The notes under the pieces were generated by a model. The model was given only the letters and a program-made list of their open reading frames with translations, was not told where the DNA came from and did no database searches. A DNA stretch of 20,000 bases from an uncultured virus (IMG/VR IMGVR_UViG_3300049185_000041). Taxonomy: Duplodnaviria; Heunggongvirae; Uroviricota; Caudoviricetes. The stretch is from the IMG/VR virus record IMGVR_UViG_3300049185_000041; one strand, given 5' to 3'. Positions 2,311 through 19,873 of the stretch are shown here, piece by piece. A program made the position numbers and the translations under genes. Position 1 is the first letter of the stretch; the number at the start of each line of letters is the position of its first letter.

Positions 2311-2351
2311 CGTGTAGCTGGGTAGCGTTGTTACTTTGTAGCGTTAGAATG

Positions 2352-5300
2352 TCAATCCCGCTTGTTCAGCGATTTGCGGTTCGTCAAGGCTTTCGCCCGA
2401 TTCCGCAACGCCTGCCAAGCGGCTCGCCCGACAGATGTCGCCACGTTGTTCTTCGCCACCTCTTCGCCCTCGGTCGATCGCAGTCCAAGCCGGGTCTTCG
2501 CCACCTCGACGAGCCCGAGGAAGCTATCGGCGTTGTCCGGGGACCGGCCTTCCCTGTCCTTGTAACTCTTTTTTGGCTCGACTTTCAGCACTCTTGCGTC
2601 ACCTTCGCTCCCTTTCGCGTGCTGGCGGCTGCACAGCTCCTTGGCCAGTTCTTCATTGACGCCGCTGATCTGCCGCGACCGGAATAGCTTCTTCGCGCCA
2701 TACCACAGCTCGGTGGCCTTGTTCGCAAACCGTTCGTGGGCCAGCACCGGTTCGGTGGTGCCGGGCTTCTTGCCGGGCTTCTTCTCGCCCGTGGGCGTCT
2801 TCGAGGCAGGGCCTGCGGAGGTGATGCCGAGCACCGCTGGTGACCACTGCACCTTCACGATGTCGCCGAACGGTTGGCCGCCTCCAGTGGAGTCGTATCC
2901 AGCGTTCTCGGGCTTGATGCCGCGGGCGATGCACATCGCCTTCCAGCCGCGCACGATCTGATAGCTCGGCGGGACGTTGACGTCGTTGACATTCACCTTC
3001 ACCGCCTCGCCGCCGGTACGCACCAGACGCATGACACCGTCGATGTCCTCGCCGCACAGGCCGAAGGTCGCGTACGCGCGGTCACCGCCGGCCGTGAACG
3101 CCGGGTCGAGGAAGCTGCACTTCTCTGGCGGCCGGAACCCCCACACCACGTCGTCGGGAGACTGGCGGGCCCCGGACAATTCGATGTCGGCCGGGGTGTA
3201 GATGCCGGATCCCGCACCGGAAAGGCACCACGTCCCAAGCACCATCCGGTGGTAGAACAGCGAGTCGCGGCCATAATCCTTCTCCATCTGGTCAATCTCG
3301 GCCTTCCGGAGCATCCACGAGTAGCGGTCGTTGCCCTCGGTGATGCGGGGGTTTTTCTCCCCGTTGAAACGAATGCACAGGCCCCCGGACTCGGTCCTCC
3401 ACTCCTCATCACGGATCAGATCGACCTTGTCCCAGCCGCCTTCGGGCTTGGCGGCGAGCCCGAAGGTGTCGTAGGGCAGGTTCGGGTTCCCCAGATAGAT
3501 GACTTGGCAGTGCCCGACATTGCCGGGCTTGAGGTTGGTCTTGACCGCGGTCAGCACCGCCTCGGCGACGCCGGTCGCCTCATCGACGATCAGGATGATC
3601 TTGCCGATCCGGTCCTGGCTGATGTTGTAGAGTCGGGGAACGAGGTCGCGCAGCGTGGCCTCGTCGAAGTGATTGGCGAGGTCCGCGAACTCGGGGTGAG
3701 CCATCAGCCCTTCGAAGCTTTCGTCCGGCTCCCCGGTGCGGGGTGCCTTCATGCCGATGAGCTTGTTCACCGCTTCCTTCTCGGACCCTTGCTCGGCGGC
3801 GAGCAGGAAGATGCCGGTCGATTCCCCGAAGCTGTCGCCCTTGTAGTTGAGCCCGCGAATTTCGTTGGTCGCCCACGCGGGTTTGCCGGGCAAGAAAGGG
3901 ATTCCTTCCCAGTACTCGCGCACGGTCTTCCAGATGCGCTTCTTCGCCTCCTTGATCGAGGTCGACATCACCAGCACCAGCGTGTGCGTCGGATCGGTCG
4001 TGTAGCTCACGACGCCGTAGAGGGCGGCAGGGTCACTGTTGTGGACGACGGTGAAGTCAGCGAGCAGGAAACGGTGGTTACCGTCGACGGAGAAGCCGAC
4101 CCACGGCATATCCCCGGCGGGGGTGAGTTTGACCCCCGTGCAGTCCGAGTTCTGCCTGAGCTTTTTCTCGCGGCACTTCTTCCGGAGCGTCGGGATTTCG
4201 ACGACGTTACCGAAGATCGTGATGCGCCACGAAGGGAACTGCTTGCCTTGGCAGGTCGCCATCCGATGCACCGTCGAGACCCGGAATCCTAGTGACCGAG
4301 CGAGGAACGCGATGTCGTCCTTCAGCCCGGTGAACTTTGTCGCGATCTCGAAGTAAGTCCCTGCGGCATGTCCGTCGGTGTCGATCAGGCCTGCGAGGAG
4401 AAGCATCCGGTTTTTCCGGGAGTTCAGCAGGTAGTGGCGGGGGATCCGCTTCTCCATGTCATCCATCGACGACTTCAGAAACCGCCACAACGGATTGTTA
4501 GACATTCCGGCCGAAACATCACCTTCAGGGAAAACGGCGAAGGTCGGGCAAGTGAGATGCTCGTGGTCATACTCACGCATCTCGTAGCCCTCGTGCTCGC
4601 ACCATGCTTTCACATAGCTGAAAACCTCGGGTTCCGACCGCGGGATCGAGATCCGACACCGATGGCGCGCGCCGTCCCCCAGCCAGATTCCAAACAAGCG
4701 CGGATCCAGTTCGAGTTTCTTCTCGGGGAAATCGACACCAACGCAGAACTGCTTGTAATTGGTGCGGGTTTGTCCACTAGCCGTGTGGTAGTCTTTTGCG
4801 GGTATCTCAATGATCTCTCCGAGACGTCGGCGACTCCTCCCCGAAGCGATCGCTCTCTTCAGGACCAACACATGATCCTCCGTGCAGAACCACGGTTCGC
4901 CGTGGACCGGGGTCACCTTAAACATCGGCCCGACACCGGAATGCACCTCTTGCACGATCCGGGGCGCACTGTCGTCGCCCATCAGGCGATCTCCGGGCTT
5001 TACTTCATCCGCACGCTTGGTAGAACCGTCGTGCATTAGCACTAAGTCGTTGACTGACAAGCACTTACCCGCACTCGTGCATCCTGCGACGCATAGCTCC
5101 GGCTCCTCGCACATCTTCCGGAACATCCGGTTCGCCCAAGGGTTCCAGATGCACCGCTTCATCGACCCCGATGCGGGGTTGTTCCACGTCAGATCTACGT
5201 ATCGCTGGAAGTGGCTAAAACGCCCCAGCCCGCCCTCGTGCTCCTCGTGGCCGATGCGGAAGCACAGCGCCTCGATCTGGATCTGGTCACGGGTGCGATC

Positions 5301-5393
5301 CCCGGTGAGCTGGAAGTAATCCTCGCCGAAGCCGAGGCGCTGGAGGCCGTACCACTGGAGCGGCGGTTGGTCGGGTGCGGGTGCGACGGGCAT
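2352..5393 (-). CDS. terL: Terminase large subunit containing an intein (1013-aa precursor, ~671 aa after splicing)
   Basis: Walker A GCTSAGK/S is split by the intein. Also Walker B IILIVDEA, coupling motif YLGNP, and RNase H-like nuclease motifs FLDPAFTAGGD and SPDNADS. Confidence 0.85.
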   Translation of the reverse strand: MPVAPAPDQPPLQWYGLQRLGFGEDYFQLTGDRTRDQIQIEALCFRIGHEEHEGGLGRFSHFQRYVDLTWNNPASGSMKRCIWNPWANRMFRKMCEEPELCVAGCTSAGKCLSVNDLVLMHDGSTKRADEVKPGDRLMGDDSAPRIVQEVHSGVGPMFKVTPVHGEPWFCTEDHVLVLKRAIASGRSRRRLGEIIEIPAKDYHTASGQTRTNYKQFCVGVDFPEKKLELDPRLFGIWLGDGARHRCRISIPRSEPEVFSYVKAWCEHEGYEMREYDHEHLTCPTFAVFPEGDVSAGMSNNPLWRFLKSSMDDMEKRIPRHYLLNSRKNRMLLLAGLIDTDGHAAGTYFEIATKFTGLKDDIAFLARSLGFRVSTVHRMATCQGKQFPSWRITIFGNVVEIPTLRKKCREKKLRQNSDCTGVKLTPAGDMPWVGFSVDGNHRFLLADFTVVHNSDPAALYGVVSYTTDPTHTLVLVMSTSIKEAKKRIWKTVREYWEGIPFLPGKPAWATNEIRGLNYKGDSFGESTGIFLLAAEQGSEKEAVNKLIGMKAPRTGEPDESFEGLMAHPEFADLANHFDEATLRDLVPRLYNISQDRIGKIILIVDEATGVAEAVLTAVKTNLKPGNVGHCQVIYLGNPNLPYDTFGLAAKPEGGWDKVDLIRDEEWRTESGGLCIRFNGEKNPRITEGNDRYSWMLRKAEIDQMEKDYGRDSLFYHRMVLGTWCLSGAGSGIYTPADIELSGARQSPDDVVWGFRPPEKCSFLDPAFTAGGDRAYATFGLCGEDIDGVMRLVRTGGEAVKVNVNDVNVPPSYQIVRGWKAMCIARGIKPENAGYDSTGGGQPFGDIVKVQWSPAVLGITSAGPASKTPTGEKKPGKKPGTTEPVLAHERFANKATELWYGAKKLFRSRQISGVNEELAKELCSRQHAKGSEGDARVLKVEPKKSYKDREGRSPDNADSFLGLVEVAKTRLGLRSTEGEEVAKNNVATSVGRAAWQALRNRAKALTNRKSLNKRD
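4038..5063 (-). mobile_element. Intein with LAGLIDADG homing endonuclease (342 aa) inside the terL Walker A motif
   Basis: Starts CLSVNDLVLMHDGS after AGK, has block B FCTEDHVL and LAGLIDADG motifs LFGIWLGDG and LLAGLIDTDG, and ends FTVVHN followed by Ser(+1). Confidence 0.93.
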
Positions 5394-6646: not shown

Positions 6647-6653
6647 GGCCGTA

Positions 6654-6682
6654 AATGTGTAGCGATGTAGCCGCCGGGTCAA
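6654..6682 (-). promoter_or_regulatory. Sigma70-like promoter, near-leaderless, overlapped by a GCTACA direct repeat
   Basis: TTGACC (6682-6677), 17-nt spacer, CACATT (6659-6654), then 7 nt to GTG. Confidence 0.5.
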
Positions 6683-6726: not shown

Positions 6727-6756
6727 GTTAGATTCACGCCAATGAATCGAAACTCA
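6688..6756 (-). ncRNA. Candidate antisense sRNA complementary to the CACGCCA(A)UGAA start-codon motif
   Basis: Minus strand reads GAGUUUC-GAUUCA-UUGGCG-UGAAUC-UAAC-AACCCCGCCCCCGG-UUCGU-CCGGCGGCGGGGUU-UCUUUU. It is bounded by a promoter and an intrinsic terminator and contains no plausible ORF. Confidence 0.7.
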
Positions 6757-6762
6757 GGCTGG

Positions 6763-6791
6763 AGGATGCGCCGGGGTGGCGGGGTTGTCAA
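6763..6791 (-). promoter_or_regulatory. Sigma70-like promoter for the candidate sRNA
   Basis: Consensus TTGACA (6791-6786, overlapping the upstream stop codon), 17-nt spacer, CATCCT (6768-6763). Confidence 0.65.
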
Positions 6792-7489
6792 CCTCCGGCT
6801 TTCGGGTCCCCACCGGTTCCGAAGGCGTCAGTTCCCGCGTCGCGGTTGTACGCCTGCTGACCGGCGTCGTCCATCCGAGGGTGGTCGCTAGCGACCGTGA
6901 ACCGGGGCTCCTGGTCCGGATAGACGTGCCTGCTGAGATCAAGCATCCACTGCACGACGCGCTGGACCTCGGCTTCGGACGGCGGGGCGGTATCGCTCAC
7001 GAAGTCGCCCATCGGATTGCTCTTGCGCTTCGCGAGGCATCCGTCGAGGAACTCTGCGAGGATGAAGTCCGATGTCTTGAGTTCGACGTCCTTCGAGTGA
7101 CAGTTCAGGACGAGCGCGAGGTCTTGCTTGAACGTGGTGCGGCTGGGCCGGACGACCGGCCTCACGCAGTTCGCGACGTAGCGCCATGCGTCGGCTTGCT
7201 TCTGCTTGTTCGGGTCGGCGGCAAACTCGTCCCACGTGGGCAGTTTGTCACCGTTGTAAGCCACGCCTCCGACGCCGGCAGAATAGGCCGAGTAGAGGTA
7301 GCTCGCGATTGCCTCGGTGTCGCCGCCTGCGACCTCGGCGAACTTCAGGGTGGTGATTGCCTGCCGGATCTCCGCGGCCTTGGTGGCGCAGAGGTCCGCC
7401 TGTTCGATGTTCCCTTCCTTGCGGTGGATGGGCTCGTTGTTCCCCAGCGTGGAGAGTGTGATTTCGAGTTCAGCGATTGCGTGTTTCAT
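6788..7489 (-). CDS. Hypothetical phage protein (233 aa), apparently a composite of small domains
   Basis: Segments LYSAYSAGVGGVAYNGDKLPTWDEF and FKQDLALVLNCHSKDVELKTSDFILAEFLDGCL resemble recurring small phage domains. Co-oriented with its neighbours. Confidence 0.7.
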   Translation of the reverse strand: MKHAIAELEITLSTLGNNEPIHRKEGNIEQADLCATKAAEIRQAITTLKFAEVAGGDTEAIASYLYSAYSAGVGGVAYNGDKLPTWDEFAADPNKQKQADAWRYVANCVRPVVRPSRTTFKQDLALVLNCHSKDVELKTSDFILAEFLDGCLAKRKSNPMGDFVSDTAPPSEAEVQRVVQWMLDLSRHVYPDQEPRFTVASDHPRMDDAGQQAYNRDAGTDAFGTGGDPKAGG

Positions 7490-8987: not shown

Positions 8988-9199
8988 GTCATCTCGTCGA
9001 ATTTCTTCATTACCCGTTCCCACCAGTCCCGGATGTCCAGCACTCCGCCGAACCGGGTTGGCTCGCCCGCCGCCTCCACCGCATCACGGAATTTCTTCCG
9101 GGCAGCGGAGCGGGCCTCTTCAACGACTCCTTTCTCGACGGCTTCGATCAGCGCGAGTTCGGCCGCGGTGGCTTTCGATTTCAGTTCTGCGAGGGTCAT
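8984..9199 (-). CDS. Hypothetical protein (71 aa)
   Basis: Helical charged ORF with ATGA overlaps at both ends. Confidence 0.65.
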   Translation of the reverse strand: MTLAELKSKATAAELALIEAVEKGVVEEARSAARKKFRDAVEAAGEPTRFGGVLDIRDWWERVMKKFDEMT

Positions 9200-9588
9200 G
9201 GGCTTCCGGTGCGCGGGATGTTACCGATCGGGCCGACCTGCTCTGCCGTGCGTGTCACCTTCAGGATTCCCTTGATGGTGAACTGGCGTCGAGCCTCGTG
9301 GCTGCGGGTGAGCTTCTTCCCGCGGCCGTTCTCGTTATACGGCTGGACGGTGACCGTGCCGAAGTGCTGGTAGCCGCGCATGACGTGGCCGCCCGAAACG
9401 GAAATTACGATGCCCTTGCAGTAGCGCCGGGATCCATCGACGACCTCCACTTCATCGCCACCGCGGATGCCGAAGAACTCCTCGGTGACCTTGCGGGCCT
9501 CGCGATTATTGGCTTCCCTCACCGCCTGCGCGGCGGCATCGGACTTCGTCAGTTCCCGGAGACGCCGGGTCGCTTCACGTTTCGTCAT
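9196..9588 (-). CDS. Hypothetical basic protein (130 aa), possible SH3/KOW-like C-terminal half
   Basis: First gene after a promoter and preceded by TCACGCCC-ATG; beta-rich pattern IRGGDEVEVVDG...KGIVISV. Confidence 0.65.
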   Translation of the reverse strand: MTKREATRRLRELTKSDAAAQAVREANNREARKVTEEFFGIRGGDEVEVVDGSRRYCKGIVISVSGGHVMRGYQHFGTVTVQPYNENGRGKKLTRSHEARRQFTIKGILKVTRTAEQVGPIGNIPRTGSP

Positions 9589-9600
9589 GGGCGTGACAGC

Positions 9601-9630
9601 GTGCTACACTGCTACACCACTACCTGTCAA
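9601..9630 (-). promoter_or_regulatory. Leftward sigma70-like promoter of a divergent pair
   Basis: TTGACA (9630-9625), 18-nt spacer, TAGCAC (9606-9601), then 12 nt to ATG 9588. Overlapped by GCTACACTGCTACAC. Confidence 0.6.
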
Positions 9631-10254: not shown

Positions 10255-10920
10255 TCAATCCTTCAGTTCGTCCGGCGTCTCGGTGTTCCGGCTCACGATC
10301 TTCGCCACGCTGCCGTAGCTCCACGGCTTCCCCGTGCGGGTCGGCACTCCGTCCCCATTCAGAACATCGGCGATCTCCTGCATCCGGTAGCCCTCGTCGC
10401 GAAGCGCGATCATCCGTTTCAGGGTGGGTGCTTCTTGGGGGTGGAAGCCGAAGGGCTTGCGGCCTTCGCACCGTCCATCCGCTGTCCTGATCCGGTCCTT
10501 CGCGGCTTTGAGCTTGCGGACGATGCTCGATTTATCGAACTCCGATACCGCGGCGAGGATCTGCCGGATGAGCTTGGCTGTCGGGTTGTCGTTCTCGGTG
10601 AGGTCGTTCCCCGATTCAGCCTCGATCACCGTCACCCCCAGGTCGCGGAACTGGCGCAGCAGGACTTCCGATACGATGAGGTCACGGGCCAGCCGGTCGG
10701 CCTTCTCCACCACCACGATGTCCCCAGAGGACACCGCGGCGAACAACCTCGACAGGGCCGGGCGGGACATCAGGTCGGTGGTGCCGCTGACCCCCTCCTC
10801 CACGAACTCCTCGGTGACCGGCGTCTCGCTCCACTTCTGAATGGCTTCGCGCTGGCGCGGGAACCCGTCGCCGTCGATCTGACCCTTCGAGCTGACCCGC
10901 AAATAAGCTAGAACCTTCAT
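10255..10920 (-). CDS. Serine recombinase (resolvase/invertase family) with C-terminal recombinase-type DNA-binding domain
   Basis: YLRVSSKGQ (catalytic Ser), EEGVSG, RPAL, VVEKADRLARD, and C-terminal IADVLNGDGVPTRTGKPWSYGSVAKIV. Confidence 0.92.
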   Translation of the reverse strand: MKVLAYLRVSSKGQIDGDGFPRQREAIQKWSETPVTEEFVEEGVSGTTDLMSRPALSRLFAAVSSGDIVVVEKADRLARDLIVSEVLLRQFRDLGVTVIEAESGNDLTENDNPTAKLIRQILAAVSEFDKSSIVRKLKAAKDRIRTADGRCEGRKPFGFHPQEAPTLKRMIALRDEGYRMQEIADVLNGDGVPTRTGKPWSYGSVAKIVSRNTETPDELKD

Positions 10921-10929
10921 GAGGTGGGG

Positions 10930-10958
10930 AAAATAGCTAGGCTATTGGCTAGAGTCAA
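10930..10958 (-). promoter_or_regulatory. Sigma70-like promoter of the recombinase, near-leaderless
   Basis: TTGACT (10958-10953), 17-nt spacer, TATTTT (10935-10930), then 9 nt to ATG. Confidence 0.75.
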
Positions 10959-11020
10959 TGGGGATTCGCTACATTACTACACATTTACGGTAGGGGCTGG
11001 GTAGGGTAAATCGAGGTATA

Positions 11021-11068
11021 CCAGTCTGCCAGTCTGCCAGTCTGCCAGTCTGCCAGTCTGCCAGTCTG
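11021..11068. repeat. Tandem octamer (CCAGTCTG)x6
   Basis: Six perfect copies read directly from the sequence. Confidence 0.97.
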
Positions 11069-11637
11069 CAAGTGTAGCGGTGTAGCGGACTACGGGTGAG
11101 GGATTGCGGGGATTTTGGAAGGCGGTGAGCGCCCCGGAATCGCGCTCTGGCGGTGGGGCCGCCCCCTCCCCGGGGTGGTGGGTGCGCCCTAGCGCCGCGC
11201 ATCACCGGCTCGCCTCTCCCCCGCCACAGGGTCCGCGCCAATCCCTCGCACTGGTAGCATTGCGGGCCAGCCATGACACAGGACCAATGCTCGGGGGCAT
11301 TAGCCTATTTCGTGAAACTGGCTAGAGACTGGCTTGCGACCATGCCGGCCCGGCGCTAGGGCGCATAGGATTTGCATGCAAACAGGCGGTGCGCCGGCTC
11401 GCTGGCCCCACTGCTCCGAGCAAGCGGGCGCACCGTTATATATTTCGATATATAAGGCGTGGATCGAGCCCGCCGCACCACCTCACCCCCTCAAAACCGA
11501 TTCCCCGGACTTTGTCCTGCAAAGTTCCAAAATGGCGCGTCAGGTCGGCCCGCGACCATTAATTGCAAATGCAACTAACTTACCATTTCAGGTATTCCGG
11601 GAAACCCCGTTTCCACCCTCCACCACCCCATTTCGAG

Positions 11638-12038
11638 CTGGTAAACTCGGACTGGTAAACTCTGCCAGCTAGTCTGCCAGTTTACCACTCTACCACGAAA
11701 AACCCGAGAACTCTACACCTCTACACCGCCTCGACCATTTCGCTCGATTTGTAGCAGTGTAGAGAAGTCCCCGGAACGCTGGCAGCCTGCCAGACTGGTA
11801 AACTCTCCAAAAGCATGACAGTAGAGTTTACCACATATCACGCCCATTTTCGATTGATCTACGATCTGTTCCATTTCAATCACTTACGAACTACCATCAA
11901 CTACTCTAATTGTCTTTTTGGTAAACTGGTAAACTGGTAAACTAAAGTATTAATATTGGGGGAAAAATATAGAGGGAGAGGATTTGAAAAAATCCCCAGA
12001 AAAAAGAAAGTCCGGCCTCCGAGTCTGCCACTCTGCCA
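11638..12038. repeat. Cluster of TGGTAAAC / TGGCAGAC octamers in both orientations, including (TGGTAAAC)x3 at 11919-11942
   Basis: Copies near 11639, 11653, 11672 (rev), 11680 (rev), 11796, 11826 (rev), 11919-11942 and 12023 (rev). Confidence 0.9.
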
Positions 12039-12073
12039 ATCCTCCAATCTGTAGCAGTGTAGGAGTTGATTCA

Positions 12074-12120: not shown

Positions 12121-12145
12121 TTCCCCCGTCAATCGAAACACGCCA

Positions 12146-12328
12146 ATGAAGACGCTCGAAACCACCCTCTCCGCCATCGCCTACGCACTGCAAACCCCGC
12201 AGCGCGCCCGCCTCCGCCGCAATATTCGCGGATGGATTGGAAAAGCCATCAAAGCCGGCCCCCGCTCTCCGGAATGGGAGTTTGTCGCCAAGTGGAGCTT
12301 CGAACTCCGCATGCTGGAAATCCGCTGA
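12146..12328 (+). CDS. Hypothetical protein (60 aa)
   Basis: MKTLETTLSAIAY...; start defined by CACGCCA-ATG. Confidence 0.65.
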   Translation: MKTLETTLSAIAYALQTPQRARLRRNIRGWIGKAIKAGPRSPEWEFVAKWSFELRMLEIR

Positions 12329-12356
12329 CCTAGAAACCGCTTACCTCACGCCAATC

Positions 12357-12788
12357 ATGAAACACCCCGCCACCTTCGGCCAAGTTCTGCAAGCCATCAA
12401 AGCTTCAGACCTTTGGGACTTCTCACAGGAGTATTCACAAGGCCGGTTTTCCGTTGCCGTCTTCCATGACGATTTCCCGAAAGACCGCCGGCACGTTTAC
12501 CGGATTGAATGGCACCGCGACAACCGGAAGCCTCGCGTCAATCTAACCGTGCTTCGGAAATTCGATGCCGTGAAAAATTGCTGGAATGAGACCGTCCATG
12601 CCGAAAGCGGGTCTTGGTCTCTCCCGGACAAGCGCGGCGAGAAAGCCCTTGTCGGCTTCATTAAGGAAACCAGCAAGCGCCACGGCAAAGCCCCCAACCC
12701 GTCGTTCTTCTCTTTCCACCGCGCCACGGAAGACCGGGTCGCCATGGAGGAAGCCAATCTCGCGAAAGCCTTTCAAGGGCGTCTCTGA
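12357..12788 (+). CDS. Hypothetical protein (143 aa)
   Basis: MKHPATFGQVLQAIK...; start defined by CTCACGCCAATC-ATG. Confidence 0.7.
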   Translation: MKHPATFGQVLQAIKASDLWDFSQEYSQGRFSVAVFHDDFPKDRRHVYRIEWHRDNRKPRVNLTVLRKFDAVKNCWNETVHAESGSWSLPDKRGEKALVGFIKETSKRHGKAPNPSFFSFHRATEDRVAMEEANLAKAFQGRL

Positions 12789-12817
12789 TTCCCCGCAACC
12801 TCTTACTCACGCCAATC

Positions 12818-13063
12818 ATGAAAACAGAAGCCAGTCCGAAGTTCCGCAATAAAAACGGCACCCTTACAGCCTACGCTTTCGCTTGCGGCTACCTTGAGAC
12901 CCGCGAAAAGAATGGTGTTAAAGTCACCCTTGAGCGGGACTCCGCATGCTGGCACGTCAAGACGTGGGACAGCGTGGAAAAGGTCCGCCGCGCATGGGAA
13001 AGCGTCACCCTTCTAACGGACGCTCGGAAGGAATTCCGGCGGCAGTGCAAAACCTTTCTCTAG
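12818..13063 (+). CDS. Hypothetical phage protein (81 aa)
   Basis: CTCACGCCAATC-ATG start; contains GTLTAYAFACGYLE. Confidence 0.75.
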   Translation: MKTEASPKFRNKNGTLTAYAFACGYLETREKNGVKVTLERDSACWHVKTWDSVEKVRRAWESVTLLTDARKEFRRQCKTFL

Positions 13064-13101
13064 CCCTCTCCTCCCCGCCAGCCGCGCACGCCCGGCCTCC
13101 C

Positions 13102-13164
13102 GCTTTCCTTGCATTGGCGTGCAATAGACTCACCTGCCCTTGGCCTAGCCGGGGGCGGGTCGAG
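13102..13164 (+). ncRNA. Second copy of the anti-start-motif RNA element
   Basis: GCUUUCC-UUGCA-UUGGCG-UGCAA-UAGACUC-ACCUGCCCUUGGC-CUA-GCCGGGGGCGGGU-CGAG; same loop and two-hairpin layout as 6688-6756. Confidence 0.6.
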
Positions 13165-13234
13165 CCGGCGGGAGAACAGGGGTATGACGCCCCGGTCTCG
13201 CCGCAGTCCAGAAAACCAGTAAAATTCGCACGCC

Positions 13235-15088
13235 ATGAAGAATCCCGACCTATTCGACGAACGCCACGAAGCGACCTATTGCCCGGAAGACGACAAGTTG
13301 CGCCTCTACGTCGGTCGCGTCCCCCGCGACCAGTACGAAGCCCTACGCGCCGAAGGGTGGACCAGCACACCGAAACAGGATTGCGACTTTGCGGCGGTCT
13401 GGACGGTGGACCGTGAGAACACCGCGCTTTCCTTTGCCGGGGTGATTGGCGACGAGGACCAGAGCCCGCAGGACCGCGCCGCCGACCGCGCCGAACGCTT
13501 CGCCGGCTACCGGGACAAGCGCACCATGGAAGCCGGTGGCCACGCTGACCGGTACGACGCCGGGCCGTCCGCGCATGGCTATCAATCGCAAGCCCGTGCC
13601 GACCGTGCCGCCGCCCGGCATGACCGCATCGCCGACCGCGCTGTCAATGCATGGGACAAGGCGGACTACTGGACAAGCCGCACCGCTGGGGTGATTTCGC
13701 ACGCGCTGTACCGGTCTCGCCCCGATGTTCGCATGGGGCGCATCAAGGTCATTGAATCCGACCTGCGGAGGGCAAGCAAAGGCTTTGAGGATGCCGCGGA
13801 GCATCACCGCACGGTTGCCGCGATCGCCGCGGACCCCGACGGCGCGGCGATGGACCTTGTCCGCCGCTATTACAACGCCGCGGACCTCGCGCCGGAGGAA
13901 TTGGAGAACGTCCGCGACAAGGCCTCCAATGACCTGATTTCGGTCATTTGCGGACATGGCAAGGTGCGCAACCCATTGAACCCGGAAGCCCCGGCGGCCT
14001 ACCCCTTTGAGCATCGCCGCGAGGCGAACCCGCCCACGGTCTCGGACTACGCGAAACAGTGGCTCGCCGCTCACGCTGCCCCGGAAACCGACGCTTGGCA
14101 GATGACCGGAACGGCCCGGTACATCCGCCACTTGCAGCATCGCATTGCCTATGAAAATCAAATGCTGGAAGCGCAAGGCGGGCGGGAAGCTTTTACCGAA
14201 ATGGAAGCCGGCGGGATGCTCGGGACATACCTTGTCGTCCGGGTCTACAAGTCCCCGGCCACCGGTCGCGTGACTTCGGTCGATCTACTCCGCAAGGACA
14301 AGCCGACGGAACGCGAGTGGGGCGCGAAGAGGATCCCCGGCACGGATTTCTACCTTTGCCGGATTGACACGGAACGCTTGCCCGCCGGCACCTACGCCGC
14401 CCCCACGGATGAAAGCCGCGCTGAACTCGCCGCCCTGGATGCCGCGAAGAAAGAGCAACGCAAGGGAGCCGCGAAAGCCGCGCCGCTGGTCAATCCGACG
14501 TTGGAAGACGCGCAACGCTTGCAGGACCTCTTGAACGCCCGCCACCGGGCCGCATGGGTGAAGGTGCACGGCGAGCCGCGGGAAGGGTCCAGCCATCAGC
14601 CGGAACGCTCGGAGGTCTGCAAGGTGACGCAAGTGGTTTACTCCGCCAATTCCAAGGGGAGCTATTCCCGGGCGGAAACGGTGGAGTATTTCGCCGACGG
14701 TCAGGAACGCCGGAATCCCAGCCGCCGCGAGTCTCCGGTATGGGCACTCCGGCACGGCCCGGCAGTCTGCAAGCTCCGTGTCTCCGGCTACTCACCGCGC
14801 CGCGTGGTGTTCCTGACTGACAAGCCCGCCAAGGCCTTGCCCGCGGCGATCTGGTCCCCCTACCCGGACGCCCCGACGGCGGAGCAACTGCGGCCCCGTC
14901 TCGCTGAAATTCAAGCCGCCGTTTCCGCGGAGTATAACCGGCAGGACCTCACCCCGGAACAAGTGGACCTTTTGAACCGTTCGGCCGCGGTCGGCTGGAC
15001 CACGCATGAAAGCTACCGCCGCCAATGGACGGACGCCGGCATTGCGGAAGCCCGTGCCGCCGAAGTCATTGGCAAGGCCATCGTCTAA
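13235..15088 (+). CDS. DUF3560-like protein (617 aa)
   Basis: N-terminus ATYCPEDDKLRLY...PKQ...WT..RE...IGDED.S...RA..RAERF.GY..KR and HGYQSQARADR...KADYW resemble DUF3560 proteins of mobile elements; lies next to a methyltransferase. Confidence 0.7.
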   Translation: MKNPDLFDERHEATYCPEDDKLRLYVGRVPRDQYEALRAEGWTSTPKQDCDFAAVWTVDRENTALSFAGVIGDEDQSPQDRAADRAERFAGYRDKRTMEAGGHADRYDAGPSAHGYQSQARADRAAARHDRIADRAVNAWDKADYWTSRTAGVISHALYRSRPDVRMGRIKVIESDLRRASKGFEDAAEHHRTVAAIAADPDGAAMDLVRRYYNAADLAPEELENVRDKASNDLISVICGHGKVRNPLNPEAPAAYPFEHRREANPPTVSDYAKQWLAAHAAPETDAWQMTGTARYIRHLQHRIAYENQMLEAQGGREAFTEMEAGGMLGTYLVVRVYKSPATGRVTSVDLLRKDKPTEREWGAKRIPGTDFYLCRIDTERLPAGTYAAPTDESRAELAALDAAKKEQRKGAAKAAPLVNPTLEDAQRLQDLLNARHRAAWVKVHGEPREGSSHQPERSEVCKVTQVVYSANSKGSYSRAETVEYFADGQERRNPSRRESPVWALRHGPAVCKLRVSGYSPRRVVFLTDKPAKALPAAIWSPYPDAPTAEQLRPRLAEIQAAVSAEYNRQDLTPEQVDLLNRSAAVGWTTHESYRRQWTDAGIAEARAAEVIGKAIV

Positions 15089-15137
15089 CACCAACCCCCG
15101 GCGGCGGGGCTCCGGTCTCGCCGCCACTTCTCACGCC

Positions 15138-15809
15138 ATGAACCCGCCCGACCTCTCCCGCCTCCACACCCTCCGCGATGCCAATGATTTGCACGCGGCC
15201 ACCATGGAGTTAAACCGCGGACGCTTCGAAGCCCTCCGCACTCGCCATGAGGACGGCACCGCGCCGCGTGCGGTCTCCGCATACCAGCTTTTCCAGACCC
15301 CGCCGGCACTGGCGGCCCGCATGGTGGAGCTGGCCGAAGTAAAGCCCGGGGACGTGCTGCTTGAACCGTCCGCCGGTCTTGGCAGGATCATTGACCCGGC
15401 GCTTGCGGCGGGTGCCCGGGTCCTCGCCGTCGAGGTCTCGCCGGACCTTTCGGGCGAGCTTTTCCGGGCATACGAAGGGAAGGACGTGAGGCTATTGCAG
15501 CGCGACTTTCTGACCGTCCGGCCAGCCTATGAAGGCAACGCCGCGCTTATCGTGAAGGACCTCGCGGAAGTCCGCATTGACCGCGTGGTGATGAACCCGC
15601 CGTTTCACATGCGGGCGGACATTGCCCACGTAAGGCACGCGCTGCGATTCCTCCGCCCCAGTGGCGTCCTGGTCGGCTTGTGCCTGTCCACCCGCCACCG
15701 CACGGAAGCCCTGCAACCGCTCGCCGACCTGTGGGAAGTCATTCCCGCCGGGACGTTCAAGGGCGAGGGCACGAACGTCGAAACGGTCTTGTTCCGCATC
15801 ACTGGCTAA
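15138..15809 (+). CDS. SAM-dependent methyltransferase, N6-adenine DNA MTase-like (223 aa)
   Basis: QLFQTP, motif I LLEPSAGLG, AVE, DFL and catalytic motif IV VMNPPF; start at CTCACGCC-ATG. Confidence 0.85.
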   Translation: MNPPDLSRLHTLRDANDLHAATMELNRGRFEALRTRHEDGTAPRAVSAYQLFQTPPALAARMVELAEVKPGDVLLEPSAGLGRIIDPALAAGARVLAVEVSPDLSGELFRAYEGKDVRLLQRDFLTVRPAYEGNAALIVKDLAEVRIDRVVMNPPFHMRADIAHVRHALRFLRPSGVLVGLCLSTRHRTEALQPLADLWEVIPAGTFKGEGTNVETVLFRITG

Positions 15810-15822
15810 CATCCGCACGCCA

Positions 15823-15876
15823 ATGAAAACGCATCCAACACCACTCCCGGTCTCCATAACAGAAATCACGCCATGA
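15823..15876 (+). CDS. Possible 17-aa minigene MKTHPTPLPVSITEITP
   Basis: Has its own CACGCCA-ATGAA motif, and its stop overlaps the next ATG (ATGA). Confidence 0.4.
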   Translation: MKTHPTPLPVSITEITP

Positions 15877-16187
15877 AAACCTTTTACTTCAATACGGGCG
15901 TCCGGCCCCACGCTCACACGCCCCCGGTCAAATTGAGCCCCGGGCAAGTCATGAGGGGCGGCACGATGCAAATACCTTTCGACTGTGAGGGCGTGCCTGA
16001 GGGTGCGACCTTCGACCACGGAAGCGACAATCCGGAGCCCGGATACCCGGGCGAGATTGTCCGCGAGATCCACAACTCCGCCTTGGTCTCGAAATACGCG
16101 CACTTCCGCCCGCCGGTCTCCCCGGAGCCACACCCCTACGTCCAGAAGTCACTCCGCGGGGAGCAACCCAGCCACCCTTGGAAGTAA
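15873..16187 (+). CDS. Hypothetical protein (104 aa)
   Basis: ATCACGCC-ATG start. Confidence 0.7.
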   Translation: MKTFYFNTGVRPHAHTPPVKLSPGQVMRGGTMQIPFDCEGVPEGATFDHGSDNPEPGYPGEIVREIHNSALVSKYAHFRPPVSPEPHPYVQKSLRGEQPSHPWK

Positions 16188-16196
16188 CCCCTTTCC

Positions 16197-16264
16197 AACC
16201 CCCGCCCGGTCTCCGCAATGCACGGCCTTTGCATCCCAGCATGTAAGGGGCCGGGCGGGTTTTA
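16197..16264 (+). terminator. Long stem-loop followed by a U-tract (terminator-like or processing hairpin)
   Basis: CCCGCCCGGTCTC (16201-16213) pairs with GGGGCCGGGCGGG (16247-16259), followed by TTTTT. Confidence 0.5.
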
Positions 16265-16292
16265 AACCTCTCACCTGATAGAAATTGAAACC

Positions 16293-16694
16293 ATGAAACC
16301 GCACCTTAATATCCTGCTTTCCCTCGGAAACCCTATTCGCTCGAAATCCGGGGAGGCTATTGGGCTTTCCACCTTTCACCCGAATGAGAATCATCAACAT
16401 GGTGATGATCCGGCAGAGAATCCGTCGCAATGGGAAGAGACGGTTGCGGAAGTTCTCGACGGGGGTCCGCCGGGGGTCATGGAAGACCAAGCGGCCCGCA
16501 TCCGCGACACTTGGAACGCCTGCCACGGTCTCGACCTCCCGGCGGACGTGGAACCCGGCATCCTCGCGGACCTTGTGATGGTCTCCGGGGACATGGTGCG
16601 GAGCATCGGGGATGATTCCCTGACAGTTTACCATGGAACCAAGCTCGCGAACCTCCTTGCCAAGCTCGCACCGGTCTCCCCGTCGCCGCAATGA
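16293..16694 (+). CDS. Hypothetical protein (133 aa), paralogous in part to 18812..19342
   Basis: Shares AC.GLDLP.D..PGILA.LV...LA..LAKLAP with the other gene. Confidence 0.7.
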   Translation: MKPHLNILLSLGNPIRSKSGEAIGLSTFHPNENHQHGDDPAENPSQWEETVAEVLDGGPPGVMEDQAARIRDTWNACHGLDLPADVEPGILADLVMVSGDMVRSIGDDSLTVYHGTKLANLLAKLAPVSPSPQ

Positions 16695-16786
16695 CCCCCT
16701 CCCCCGAAATCCCGTTTGCTCGTTCCATTGCCGCATGCATCGCGGCCGGCTGGGGCGTCATTTGTGCCGCGATGCTGTATCTCTAA
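16691..16786 (+). CDS. Small hydrophobic protein (31 aa; not in the ORF track)
   Basis: MTPSPEIPFARSIAACIAAGWGVICAAMLYL*; ATGA overlap; fills the intergenic gap. Confidence 0.55.
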   Translation: MTPSPEIPFARSIAACIAAGWGVICAAMLYL

Positions 16787-16797
16787 CACCTCACGCC

Positions 16798-17055
16798 ATG
16801 AAAGGAAAGCCGTTCAACTACCCGGGGAGGGTTTCCCGCAAAACAAAGGTTCATTCCTTTTGCAGTCAAATGCGCCGGAAGCTGGTCCGCTCGGGAACTC
16901 TCAATCTCGCCACCGGCAAAACGGACCTGCCTAATGAGGAGTGGCGGGATGAACCATGTGGAACCCCGCTTTTCACGGACGGGGAGCGCCAATCCGGAAT
17001 CTGCAAATCATGCGCCGGAGGATGGACGCACCCGGAAAACTCCCTGCTGCCATGA
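16798..17055 (+). CDS. Hypothetical Cys-containing protein (85 aa), possible zinc ribbon
   Basis: CTCACGCC-ATG start; HSFC...PCG...GICKSC. Confidence 0.7.
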   Translation: MKGKPFNYPGRVSRKTKVHSFCSQMRRKLVRSGTLNLATGKTDLPNEEWRDEPCGTPLFTDGERQSGICKSCAGGWTHPENSLLP

Positions 17056-17195
17056 ACCGCCCCCGCCGCGCCGCCCTTCACCGGGGCATCCTCCACGCCC
17101 TGCCGCTGTCCATTATCCTGTGGGGCGGTCTCGCCGGGGCCGCCTATGCCGTCACCCGCGTCATTCTGACAATCACGAACCAATTCACGCCATGA
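17052..17195 (+). CDS. Small single-TM protein (47 aa)
   Basis: MNRPRRAALHRGILHALPLSIILWGGLAGAAYAVTRVILTITNQFTP; ATGA overlaps at both ends. Confidence 0.65.
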   Translation: MNRPRRAALHRGILHALPLSIILWGGLAGAAYAVTRVILTITNQFTP

Positions 17196-17440
17196 ATACC
17201 CAGATGCAATCCCAGGTCGCCGCAAAGCTGACCGAACTTAAAGCCGGTCTCCCCTCCACCGTGGAGAAGATCGAAACCGAAATCCGCCAATGGCGGGAGA
17301 CTCGCGACTACTGCCGCGACAAAGGCAACAAGTCGGCGGCGGAAGACGCGGAGGCTGCCGCCGTCGCGTTCATTGAAATCCTGCCGCCCCGCGTCAAGGC
17401 GGACTACACCGCCCCCGCTTGGATGTACGGTAGACTCTGA
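17192..17440 (+). CDS. Hypothetical protein (82 aa)
   Basis: MNTQMQSQVAAK...; TTCACGCC-ATG start. Confidence 0.7.
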   Translation: MNTQMQSQVAAKLTELKAGLPSTVEKIETEIRQWRETRDYCRDKGNKSAAEDAEAAAVAFIEILPPRVKADYTAPAWMYGRL

Positions 17441-17482
17441 CCGGCTTCCCGGTCTCCATTTAATCGCTAACAACCTCACGCC

Positions 17483-17797
17483 ATGAAAACGAAAGTCATC
17501 TTCCGCAAGTTCAAATCCGACGGCGAGATCCTCGCCCTGTTTCCCGAAGTCCCGCACGACCGCATGGGGGACTTCTGTGTCAGCTACGCCCACGTAGGGC
17601 AGCACGGGGCCGCGAGCCCGGTCTTGACCGGCACCACGAGCCCGGCAACCCCGGAAGAGAGCGCACCGCTTAAGCGCGAAATCGAAAGCCTTGGGTATGA
17701 CCTGGAAGTCTGCCGGCGGGTTTCGTTCAAGATGGACAAGGCACGCCGGGAAGCCGCACGCCAAAACCGCAACCCTAGCCCGGTCCCCACGCCATGA
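17483..17797 (+). CDS. Conserved-looking phage hypothetical protein (104 aa)
   Basis: VIFRKF...GEILALFP...SYAHVGQHG...ATPEE..PLKREIESLGY, a pattern I recall from phage early regions; motif start. Confidence 0.8.
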   Translation: MKTKVIFRKFKSDGEILALFPEVPHDRMGDFCVSYAHVGQHGAASPVLTGTTSPATPEESAPLKREIESLGYDLEVCRRVSFKMDKARREAARQNRNPSPVPTP

Positions 17798-18540
17798 ATG
17801 CAACCCTTTCACTTCCGACCATGGACAAGCCTCCCGTCTCTTCCCTCCGCACGCTCTCCGGCATCCGCAAGGTGGCCGATTGGCTTAAGCATCGTGCCGA
17901 CTCCGGCCAATGCCCGGAGACCTGGAAGCCGGGCGTCACGCCGCCGGTCTCGTTCGGCCCGTTCAAGATCCACGACAACATCACGGCCCTCTGGCGGGCT
18001 GCCGAGCTACTGCGAAGCAATGCCACCTACTCCGGGTCTCGCGGCAGCACGGCGATCCCCGATAGCGTGTGGAGTCTGCAAGCCGTCCGCGCCTACGGCA
18101 GCCCGGAAGCCGGTCTCGCGGCCATCCGGCGGCAGCTTGCCATTCAAGCCTGTGACATGGACCCGGCGGACGTGAAGCGATGCGAACGGGCCGCATGCAT
18201 GATCGAGCGGCACCTTGCGGAAGAGGCCGAATTGAAACGCGACATGGAAGAGGCGGAAGCGGAGGCCGCGGTGTTCAAGGCCGCCCGGCCAGCAGACCCG
18301 GACGCCCCGCCGACCATCGGCAGCACGGTTTACGTTTCAGCCGCGGGCCGCGCATGGAAAGGAACCGTGCTGGGGGTAGCTAACAAGCGCGATGCCGTCC
18401 TGGGGAAGACAGTCCCGCATGTTCAAGTTCAGCTTACCCATCGCCGGGAAACCGATGGCCGGAAGATCTACGGCTTCCACCCCGGCAAGGGTCTCGTGAA
18501 ACGCTGGGAGCCCTGCCGCTACGTCCTAGTTCCATCCTAG
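17794..18540 (+). CDS. Hypothetical protein (248 aa)
   Basis: CCCACGCC-ATG start with ATGA overlap; C-terminal SH3-like pattern IGSTVYVS...WKGTVLGV. Confidence 0.7.
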   Translation: MNATLSLPTMDKPPVSSLRTLSGIRKVADWLKHRADSGQCPETWKPGVTPPVSFGPFKIHDNITALWRAAELLRSNATYSGSRGSTAIPDSVWSLQAVRAYGSPEAGLAAIRRQLAIQACDMDPADVKRCERAACMIERHLAEEAELKRDMEEAEAEAAVFKAARPADPDAPPTIGSTVYVSAAGRAWKGTVLGVANKRDAVLGKTVPHVQVQLTHRRETDGRKIYGFHPGKGLVKRWEPCRYVLVPS

Positions 18541-18811
18541 CCCGGTCTCCCGGCCACCCCATCGCATGCGCCCCGCTCCCGGTGACACGGCAGCGGGGCA
18601 AAGGGGTGATGAAAGGCAACTCCATGAAGTGACCCCATAGCAGCCGGGCTGTGAGCCGGCACGCAAAGCCCCGGACAACCGGGCAACTATGACCCTGATT
18701 AATCGCCGCCCCGCGCAAGGGGAGAATCCGAACCGCCTCCGGCTGCCATCGTGCGGCCGGGGGCTCCGGCAGTAGAGGCCATCCCGGTCTCGCTTGAACC
18801 ATACTCACGCC

Positions 18812-19342
18812 ATGAAACTCGGAGCTTACAGACAGAACGACACCACGATCAATCTATTGGACCGCGACACCGGAGAGGACGTCGCCTCCCGCGCCCATGA
18901 ACCCGGGAAAGAGGATGAGACTTATGAAGCCCTCATGCCCCTCTGCAACGCCGTCTCCGCCTGCGATGGCCTCGACCTCCCGGAAGACTGTCCGCCGGGC
19001 ATCCTTGCGGAACTTGTGACCGCCGCCCGCGAGCTTGCCAACACCATTACCGGCTTCGGGATGAAATGCCCGAACGTCCCTATCCGGGTCGAAGGGGAGA
19101 CCCTTGCGGCCATCCTCGCCAAGCTCGCGCCCGCCGGCAGCCCGGACAACGGGAAGCCGGTCTCGCCGCCGGAGCCTCGCCCACAACTCCCCTTCGAAAA
19201 AGAAGTGCTGAATCCGGACGGCACCTTCAAGGCCGGACTCGGAGACACCACTGAGCCCACGGAATCCGGCGTCCGCTATCCCGAAGGGCAACCCAGCGGT
19301 CACGGTCACACGCCGCTGGAACACCGCATTGCCAACTACTGA
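18812..19342 (+). CDS. Hypothetical protein (176 aa), paralogous in part to 16293..16694
   Basis: CTCACGCC-ATG start; shared GLDLP/PGILA/LAKLAP module. Confidence 0.7.
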   Translation: MKLGAYRQNDTTINLLDRDTGEDVASRAHEPGKEDETYEALMPLCNAVSACDGLDLPEDCPPGILAELVTAARELANTITGFGMKCPNVPIRVEGETLAAILAKLAPAGSPDNGKPVSPPEPRPQLPFEKEVLNPDGTFKAGLGDTTEPTESGVRYPEGQPSGHGHTPLEHRIANY

Positions 19343-19456
19343 AACTCTCCGGGAGCCCCGATGGGAACTCGCCCTTCAAGGAGGGCAGGAACTGGGACGG
19401 AAGTCCGGTTCACGGGGCTCCCGGTCTCCACTCTCACCAATAGAAATCACGCCACT

Positions 19457-19873
19457 ATGAACACGAAACAATTCTCGCTCGCACAAGTCCTCTCCATCAC
19501 CACTAGCCGCCTTTGCTGCGACATGGGCAGCATCTACGAGATACTGAACCACATCACCGGGGACAACCTCTTCACGCATGTCCTGCCGCGTGCTGCAAGG
19601 TTCGCCGCCCCTCTCATTCTTGAGGACCACCCGGAACTCAAGCCCGCGGGCGCGTGTCTCGACAGTTTGGACCGCTGGCTGGCCAGCGACCGGACTCCCG
19701 AGAAAAGCGAGGGCATTAAAATGTGGCTCGCCGAACTCCGGATGATGTTCCCGGACATCAAGCCGGAATATGAAATCCGAAGCTACTCGGACGCATGGCT
19801 GTCACTGAACCCGCTCGATGAACTGGCTGCGATGGCAGGGCCGGAGAAGATCGTCGTAGTCGAGAAAGCCTAA
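19457..19873 (+). CDS. Conserved-looking phage hypothetical protein (138 aa)
   Basis: FSLAQVLSITTSRL...IYEILNHITGDNLFTHVLPRA; ATCACGCCACT-ATG start. Confidence 0.8.
   Translation: MNTKQFSLAQVLSITTSRLCCDMGSIYEILNHITGDNLFTHVLPRAARFAAPLILEDHPELKPAGACLDSLDRWLASDRTPEKSEGIKMWLAELRMMFPDIKPEYEIRSYSDAWLSLNPLDELAAMAGPEKIVVVEKA

Follow-up and report, generated by a model that had tools for sequence, protein, structure and literature searches.

A CACGCC tag abuts the start codons of one gene block, without a Shine-Dalgarno sequence, in a soil phage-like element

We analysed a 20,000-nucleotide (nt) stretch of one strand of IMG/VR record IMGVR_UViG_3300049185_000041, an uncultured virus classified to Caudoviricetes; this whole stretch is called the window below. 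Its genes form two divergent arms, with minus-strand genes from position 3 to ~10,940 and plus-strand genes from 12,146 to the end, and a 1.2-kb repeat-rich region separates the two. Recognisable right-arm products are a DUF3560 protein, a DNA methyltransferase-like protein and a DUF7736 protein. A first-pass annotation had pointed to a CACGCC-N0-4-ATGAA motif (hereafter the tag) at 13 right-arm starts. The positions that it gave for CACGCC and for ATG are correct at every one of these sites, and ATGAA does follow in 13/13. A search of the window for CACGCC-N0-4-ATGAA returned 14 matches, all on the plus strand, which are these 13 sites and a 14th at 6735. Dinucleotide shuffling gave a mean of 0.04 matches and 0 of 200 shuffles reached 14, excluding a chance origin of the array.

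The first tagged gene (12146-12328) encodes a 60-amino-acid (aa) protein that is conserved in a second element described below, and its tag and start codon read CACGCC + A + ATG (12139..12148). Genes 12357-12788 (tag and ATG at 12347..12359) and 12818-13063 (12808..12820) are both headed by CACGCC + AATC + ATG. At the 617-aa DUF3560 gene 13235-15088 (13229..13237) and the DNA methyltransferase-like gene 15138-15809 (15132..15140), CACGCC adjoins the ATG directly. The next tag, again with a single A as spacer (15816..15825), heads a mere 17-codon open reading frame (ORF) without coding signal at 15823-15876, and the T-P-stop of this mini-ORF is overlapped by the directly adjoining tag (15867..15875) of gene 15873-16187. 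Further along, tags without a spacer head ORF 16798-17055 (16792..16800; weak coding score) and genes 17192-17440 (17186..17194), 17483-17797 (17477..17485), 17794-18540 (17788..17796) and 18812-19342 (18806..18814), and CACGCC + ACT + ATG (19448..19459) heads the DUF7736 gene 19457-19873. The spacer is thus A (1 nt) at two of the 13 sites, ACT (3 nt) at one and AATC (4 nt) at two, with 0 nt at the rest. The tag at 17788 overlaps the T-P-stop of 17483-17797, and the earlier claim that the tag is kept where it runs into the end of the preceding ORF holds at this site and at 15867.

Tagging is largely restricted to the right arm: 12 of ~14 genes are tagged there versus 1 of 14 in the left arm (Fisher p = 7 × 10−5), and 13/15 tag copies in the window, including one near copy, lie in the right arm. 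The arm also has an untagged gene, 16293-16694 (plus strand; coding score +0.36), which starts in the context gaaattgaaacc ATGAAACC. The sole tagged left-arm gene, 9196-9588, which encodes a small beta-barrel protein, is headed by the near copy CACGCCcATGAC (CACGCC + C + ATG(AC); 9586..9595, minus strand), and its homologue in the second element is tagged as well. The extra match in the left arm is on the plus strand (CACGCC + A + ATG, 6735..6744) and heads a 49-codon ORF that scores as non-coding; this tag (region 6735-6891) comes after a GC-rich hairpin and lies between two minus-strand genes.

To find other elements of this kind, we scanned IMG/VR for records holding the tag together with an octamer, CCGGTCTC, that accompanies it in the right arm. 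This resulted in 19 loci, of which 17 were chance records and two were the same true record listed twice. This record, G430, has 47,903 base pairs (bp) and is estimated to be 85% complete. It carries 11 forward tags and 0 reverse, and 9/11 are in its first 7.4 kb, where the ORFs that they precede are small and have no known function; counted by gene, 9/13 are tagged in the first 8 kb versus 2/46 elsewhere (p = 3 × 10−6). The remainder of its plus strand encodes a methyltransferase, a primase/helicase, an exonuclease, a Gp2.5-like single-stranded DNA-binding protein, a DNA polymerase and a T7-lysozyme-like amidase, and its minus-strand arm consists of large genes that are presumably structural. 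Its untagged genes lack a Shine-Dalgarno (SD) sequence and start in nothing more specific than the generic "..acc ATGA" context. Common to the window and G430 are only the 60-aa protein (72% aa identity, 78% nt identity over 194 bp), a 130-aa beta-barrel protein (55% aa identity) and two short stretches. In neither element is the beta-barrel gene part of the tagged block; it is tagged in both, although its leaders are otherwise unrelated. The tag had originally been proposed to be a class-wide address maintained on unrelated genes, and this proposal is borne out by the block restriction in both elements and by the retention of the tag in G430, with only 2-3 shared genes. Three isolated G430 tags have a promoter-like box, TGGTAAAT (TTTTTGGTAAAT-like or GGTAAAC), ~30 nt upstream; boxes and tags together span 7380-7416 and 15740-15787 in locus L221 and 4550-4588 in locus L222. 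These boxes recall TGGTAAAC, which is repeated in the control region of the window.

Across the 26 sites of the two elements, the consensus is a-(a/c)-(c/a)-T-CACGCC-A, with T before the tag in 20/26 and A after it in 24/26. The spacer is 0 nt in 13 sites, 1 nt in 9 and 3-4 nt in 4. The start codon is ATG in all 26, every tag is co-oriented with its gene, and AA follows the ATG in 23/26. Tagged starts are also unstructured, with a mean folding energy over -25..+20 of -2.0 kcal/mol versus -10.6 kcal/mol for windows of the arm (p = 1.7 × 10−8), and their G content is 12-14% versus 28% for arm windows. Conservation of the tag's single G thus contrasts with the avoidance of G in the rest of the stretch.

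The starts defined by the tag are mostly supported. The tag had been said to correct many starts in the ORF track, and where longer ORFs extend upstream of it, the stretches before the tag score as non-coding (-0.22 to -0.43 per codon) and those after it as coding (+0.10 to +0.71). Homology between the 60-aa protein and its G430 counterpart starts exactly at the tagged ATG, and in the protein encoded from 19457 the DUF7736 domain starts as early as residue 6. The lowest of these coding scores (+0.10) belongs to ORF 16798-17055, which overlaps another coding-like frame at 16956-17195.

None of the 13 right-arm sites has GGAG, GAGG or AGGA in -20..-4, in keeping with the first-pass annotation. 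That the tag "replaces" the SD sequence, as it put the matter, is not peculiar to tagged genes: an SD core 4-mer precedes only 1/12 left-arm genes, and the untagged G430 genes and most sampled genes of the likely host phylum also lack one. Relatives of the 617-aa protein at 41-48% identity are found in metagenome-assembled genomes labelled Verrucomicrobia, Lentisphaerae/Victivallales and Kiritimatiellia, and the hosts of the tag-bearing soil phage-like elements are probably SD-scarce Verrucomicrobiota. In the accessible text of the published work, Verrucomicrobiales are described as lacking SD sequences globally (McNutt et al. 2024, PMC10798248) and Akkermansia as "SD-scarce" though CCUCC is kept (PMC10783764). 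We took unbiased samples of high-confidence starts from two Verrucomicrobiota genomes, G271 (400 kb) and G341 (249 kb), and found SD-like 4-mers before 21/95 and 5/45 starts, respectively. The 16S rRNA of G271 keeps the normal end ...GGATCACCTCCTTTCT, including CCUCC. Leaders in both samples are rich in C and A and poor in G, positions -1 and -2 being C, and G271 adds A at +4 and +5; its start matrix has the consensus C-6, C-4, G-3, C-2, C-1, A+4, A+5 and agrees with the tag at 7/8 positions. Among long G271 ORFs that begin ATGAA, CC precedes 54/231 and the top 4-mer is CGCC (16/231), and CGCCATGAA occurs 160 times in this genome versus 51 for its reversed control. Several genes of G271 (70% GC) have TAGAAT or TATAAT boxes 7-9 nt before the ATG (L132-L171), which suggests that leaderless genes are frequent there; others have long aaccacc-type C/A leaders.

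We then counted the 11-mer CACGCCATGAA in 401 sampled Verrucomicrobiota genomes and 31 genomes of the G271 family (432 in total). It is present in 345 of the 401 phylum genomes at no more than 23 copies each (reversed controls, 0-4), and the maximum among the 31 family genomes is 25. The copies in G271 are dispersed over contigs, and 22/22 inspected ones head ORFs of 116-3331 codons, 17 of which encode Pfam domains, several beginning at residues 2-8. This placement at 22/22 inspected gene starts implies that host-type machinery reads the tag context, at <1% of genes. The tag is thus not equally common before host genes, as a plain host initiation preference would have it (≤25 11-mers per genome across the 432), and few of the phage's other genes have it.

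The companion octamer CCGGTCTC occurs 15 times on the plus strand and 0 times on the minus strand of the window, where shuffles lead one to expect 1.44 copies (maximum 5). The copies begin at 13192, 13711, 15112, 15847, 16113, 16206, 16671, 17244, 17449, 17944, 18110, 18542, 18784, 19157 and 19421 (span 13192..19428), and none is in the left arm. Eight of the 15 are intergenic, though intergenic sequence makes up only 14% of the arm (p = 4.5 × 10−4), and 6/13 of the first-noted tags have a copy 12-29 nt upstream. The seven genic copies fall in all three frame offsets, which argues for a nucleic-acid signal and not a protein signal, and the distance from octamer to tag varies by 17 nt, a poor fit to fixed promoter geometry. 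In G430, eight copies on the plus strand lie within 1534-5298, the same block as its tags. The flanks show no conservation past an S on either side. Cluster A mycobacteriophage stoperators, as presented in the available part of PMC9283540, are many short asymmetric sites whose orientation is tied to transcription and which often lie in short intergenic spaces. CCGGTCTC is likewise a many-copy, asymmetric, transcription-oriented site with an intergenic preference in the transcribed arm; it differs from stoperators (13 bp) in being 8 bp long and in having 7/15 copies inside genes. No immunity repressor was identified among the window proteins, and no integrase was found in the 85% of the G430 genome covered. 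CCGGTCTC could be a stoperator-like site, an RNA site or a nick site, and its association with the tag suggests a two-part control of early genes.

A comparable layout is known from Cluster K mycobacteriophages, whose start-associated sequence (SAS) has 11-19 copies, 3-7 bp before starts, in the non-structural half of the genome, in one orientation and mostly before ATG (2011, PMC3203893). The sequence of the SAS, GGGATAGGAGCCC, includes the SD core AGGAG and is capable of pairing with the 16S tail. The SAS is absent from the host genome, and about half of its copies have a 17-bp inverted-repeat pair (ESAS) just upstream. According to the accessible text of these sources, its function was still unverified in 2025 (PMC3203893; 188-genome survey, PMC12699233). 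Our tag is also short and asymmetric, with ~10-20 copies per element (14 + 1 in the window; 11 in G430). Like the SAS, it sits a few bases before ATG in one orientation, within the non-structural part and on genes of different families, and a second motif lies upstream of about half of its copies (CCGGTCTC at 6/13 tags). Unlike the SAS, it has no SD core (0/13) and no pairing to the G271 16S tail, it stands 0-4 nt and not 3-7 from the ATG, and its 11-mer is found at up to 25 chromosomal starts (0-25 copies) per sampled genome of the candidate host phylum. It also has no inverted-repeat pair of the ESAS type, its companion being the polar octamer CCGGTCTC, which is found inside genes too, and there is no sequence similarity between the tag and the SAS. 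The tag is SAS-like by function and layout and is not a Cluster K member by sequence, SD content or companion motif. It likewise resembles SD-independent initiation in Bacteroidia and Verrucomicrobiales (PMC10798248; PMC10783764) in the lack of SD sequences, the retained CCUCC and the unstructured leaders, whereas those accounts, in their accessible text, report a global lack of SD sequences and no hexamer tag or class-specific signal. In the literature on start signals of Verrucomicrobia and Verrucomicrobiales, no start-adjacent motif is described for the group or its phages in the main texts available, supplements aside.

By analogy with these phages, the reading we favour, while holding it only tentatively, is that (T)CACGCC(A) is a start-associated sequence like that of Cluster K without the SD core, and that it marks one co-regulated gene class. 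The position adjoining AUG, the co-orientation, the preference for ATG and AA and the lack of structure in the leader, together with the use of this context at chromosomal starts, point to a signal read at initiation. The invariance of the hexamer, its 0-4 nt spacer, its restriction to one block and its retention across differing gene content suggest that recognition is of the hexamer as a whole, which would act as the address of one expression class. Our results establish the anatomy of the tag, its class restriction, its conservation across two elements and the lack of both SD sequences and structure at tagged starts; we infer that the tag acts on mRNA at initiation and is read by a specific factor. 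Leaders would be short, unstructured and poor in G, and the tag would act in cis from their 3' ends, abutting AUG-AA. The class that it marks would comprise small genes of accessory or early type standing in one block, together with a single gene for a small beta-barrel outside it, and the elements concerned would make up a small family of phage-like entities from soil. What is generic in the signal would be the host's ordinary SD-less context, in which the leader is rich in C and A and the AUG has CC ahead of it and AA behind it, and to which the invariant hexamer would add sequence-specific recognition at translation initiation. The reader could be the host 30S subunit near its E-site and platform, or a phage factor, for which the 60-aa three-helix and 130-aa beta-barrel proteins would be the only candidates in view.

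In phage T4, RegB and RegA use a short sequence at many early-gene initiation regions as a common post-transcriptional handle, and RegB cuts GGAG in the SD sequence. The tag is similar in that many early genes carry a single short sequence in common around their starts, and it differs from the RegB target in that tagged starts have no SD sequence and no nuclease or repressor is known. How SD-less ribosomes choose start codons is an open question, and Verrucomicrobiales were recently flagged as the second such group after Bacteroidia (PMC10798248, accessible text). An invariant non-SD heptamer set against the AUG is a compact cis element for this question, with the untagged genes of the same phage as a built-in control, and it extends the unexplained mycobacteriophage SAS to a case that SD pairing cannot explain.

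Several observations weigh against a class-specific initiation signal with its own reader. The position of the tag is the sole ground for placing its action at translation. The tag is known from only two elements, and these share the 194-bp stretch at 78% nt identity, so part of the tag sharing could reflect recent module exchange and not independent retention. The 11-mer works at ordinary chromosomal genes of G271, so no phage factor is needed. The sampling comprises ~430 species of one phylum, and the actual host could be one in which the tag is common. The 3' tail of the G271 16S rRNA, which is that of a candidate relative and not of the true host, has no complement to the tag. We rejected rRNA pairing as the mode of recognition, as only GGUGUG in helix 44 of G271 can pair and would need two G-U pairs. 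Predicted folds of the candidate phage factors gave uninformative Foldseek matches, both for the beta-barrel protein (predicted local distance difference test score, pLDDT, 66; best E-value 0.16) and for the 60-aa three-helix protein (pLDDT 74; best E-value 2). Finally, two tags head non-coding-like ORFs, of 17 codons at 15823 and of 49 codons at 6735.

It is rather unlikely, though worth serious weighing, that the tag is merely a host-optimal SD-less context on which early genes converged for strong expression, with no class-specific factor. The generic features are host-wide in G271 (CC before ATG, CGCC as top 4-mer, CGCCATGAA at 160 versus 51), the G271 matrix fits the tag at 7/8 positions, the 11-mer heads real chromosomal genes, and the SD scarcity of Verrucomicrobiales is published (PMC10798248, accessible text). 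However, ~44/46 other G430 genes, including those for DNA metabolism and the large minus-strand genes, are untagged in the same host. The G271 matrix is also weak (0.1-0.15 bit per position), G341 has no G at -3, and CACGCC accounts for 23/160 CGCCATGAA copies in G271, which is little above composition. A spacing that varies by 0-4 nt is, moreover, an ill fit to a position-specific context.

A bolder version of the favoured reading, which we consider doubtful, would make CACGCCA a true SD substitute whose partner switches the whole gene class, with CCGGTCTC as a companion loading or silencing site; this partner would be a phage RNA-binding protein (the beta-barrel or the 60-aa protein) or a dedicated ribosomal site. 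The beta-barrel protein (130 aa) has an N-terminal helix, a small beta-barrel and a weak KOW match, and its family has 3 relatives among 5.8 billion proteins. Exact-peptide and alignment scans with the 60-aa and beta-barrel proteins as queries returned G430 only, an Atlas search with the shared proteins gave only viral hypothetical clusters, and against the 401 Verrucomicrobiota genomes there was no convincing match (2 hits, E ~7 × 10−4). With the 617-aa protein as query we obtained 8 genome, 5 IMG/VR and 29 metagenome loci at 34-74% identity, and none of these relatives uses the tag, their starts having only generic "..cc ATGA" contexts. Among the matches listed from an IMG/VR scan with YCACGCCATGAAAAC, there were only single chance matches. 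An anti-tag RNA was also considered and is not supported: the arm has a single TGGCGTG (13115), which pairs in cis with the non-start CACGCC at 13087, the counts fit chance, and the anti-tag copies in G430 are either part of a stem or, as we read the sequence, within coding DNA.

Alternatively, CACGCC|A could be a transcript start or RNA-processing site yielding leaderless or near-leaderless mRNAs (AUG, AAUG, AAUCAUG) translated directly by 70S ribosomes, which we regard as improbable. The A after the tag in 24/26 sites, whether within the ATG or not, would fit a pyrimidine(-1)/purine(+1) start or cut, and spacers of just 0-4 nt agree with this. By reading, leaderless-type boxes lie 7-9 nt before ATG in G271, including at 3-4 of its 22 tag sites, and the 9588 gene has TTGACA-18 nt-TAGCAC upstream, ending 5 nt before its tag. 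However, we found no upstream element at a fixed distance from the tag in the 26 sites, including no conserved -10-like box, and many tags either overlap the stop codon of the preceding gene or follow it by 8-13 nt, so that a promoter would not fit in between. The promoter and terminator scan of the window was at chance (sigma-70, 2 hits versus 1.9 expected), although the host promoter type may differ, and no nuclease was identified. In the three isolated G430 cases, the TGGTAAAT box ~30 nt upstream puts the tag inside the leader. Also improbable, finally, is a DNA junction made of the tag with CCGGTCTC, used for swapping accessory genes between phages and kept by recombination history: differing genes do stand between identical boundary motifs in the two elements and the tag is exactly at gene boundaries, but 6-13 bp is very short for homologous exchange, a pure junction does not require the tie to ATG within 0-4 nt or to ATGAA, isolated genes are tagged too (the beta-barrel gene in both elements; G430 7416 and 24588), and two genomes allow no mapping of swap points.

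Contigs from several soil metagenome runs carry the window DNA letter for letter. The contigs of four soil runs are identical to the window and therefore offer no natural variation for a conservation test of the tag, and no RNA run is among those listed as holding this DNA. Neither blastn of the window against GenBank phages nor Rfam and tRNA scans of the window returned anything. Other recognisable genes in the window encode a serine recombinase (10255-10920, minus strand), an AAA ATPase, a DUF3307 membrane protein and a 1013-aa product (2352-5393, minus strand) that contains an intein, with Hint and homing-endonuclease domains at residues ~117-396. The extein flanking this intein has no family match, and the C-terminal 554 aa gave no informative family. 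The PHROG label "terminase" for the 1013-aa ORF comes only from the intein, and for this reason we call the element phage-like and not a proven phage.

The divergent control region (10950-12065) is rich in repeats. It contains six tandem CAGTCTGC units (~11023-11070), a 20-bp AT palindrome (~11436-11456) and eight TGGTAAAC copies on both strands (11639-11942). A further element, GTAGCAGTGTAG, lies at 12051..12062 on the plus strand, ~85 nt upstream of the first right-arm gene, with other copies at 11751 and 11074 (a variant); the same 12-mer occurs on the minus strand at 9604-9615, 8 nt ahead of the 9588 gene's tag. In the right arm, the 171-nt gap 13064-13234 holds, in order, the predicted pairing of the non-start CACGCC (13087) with GGCGTG (13116), a strong hairpin (~13123-13160), a CCGGTCTC copy and the tag of the 617-aa gene. 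Finally, a 14-mer, CTACACATTTACGG, occurs at 10977-10990 (plus strand) and 6649-6662 (minus strand), each time just upstream of the start region of a left-arm ORF.

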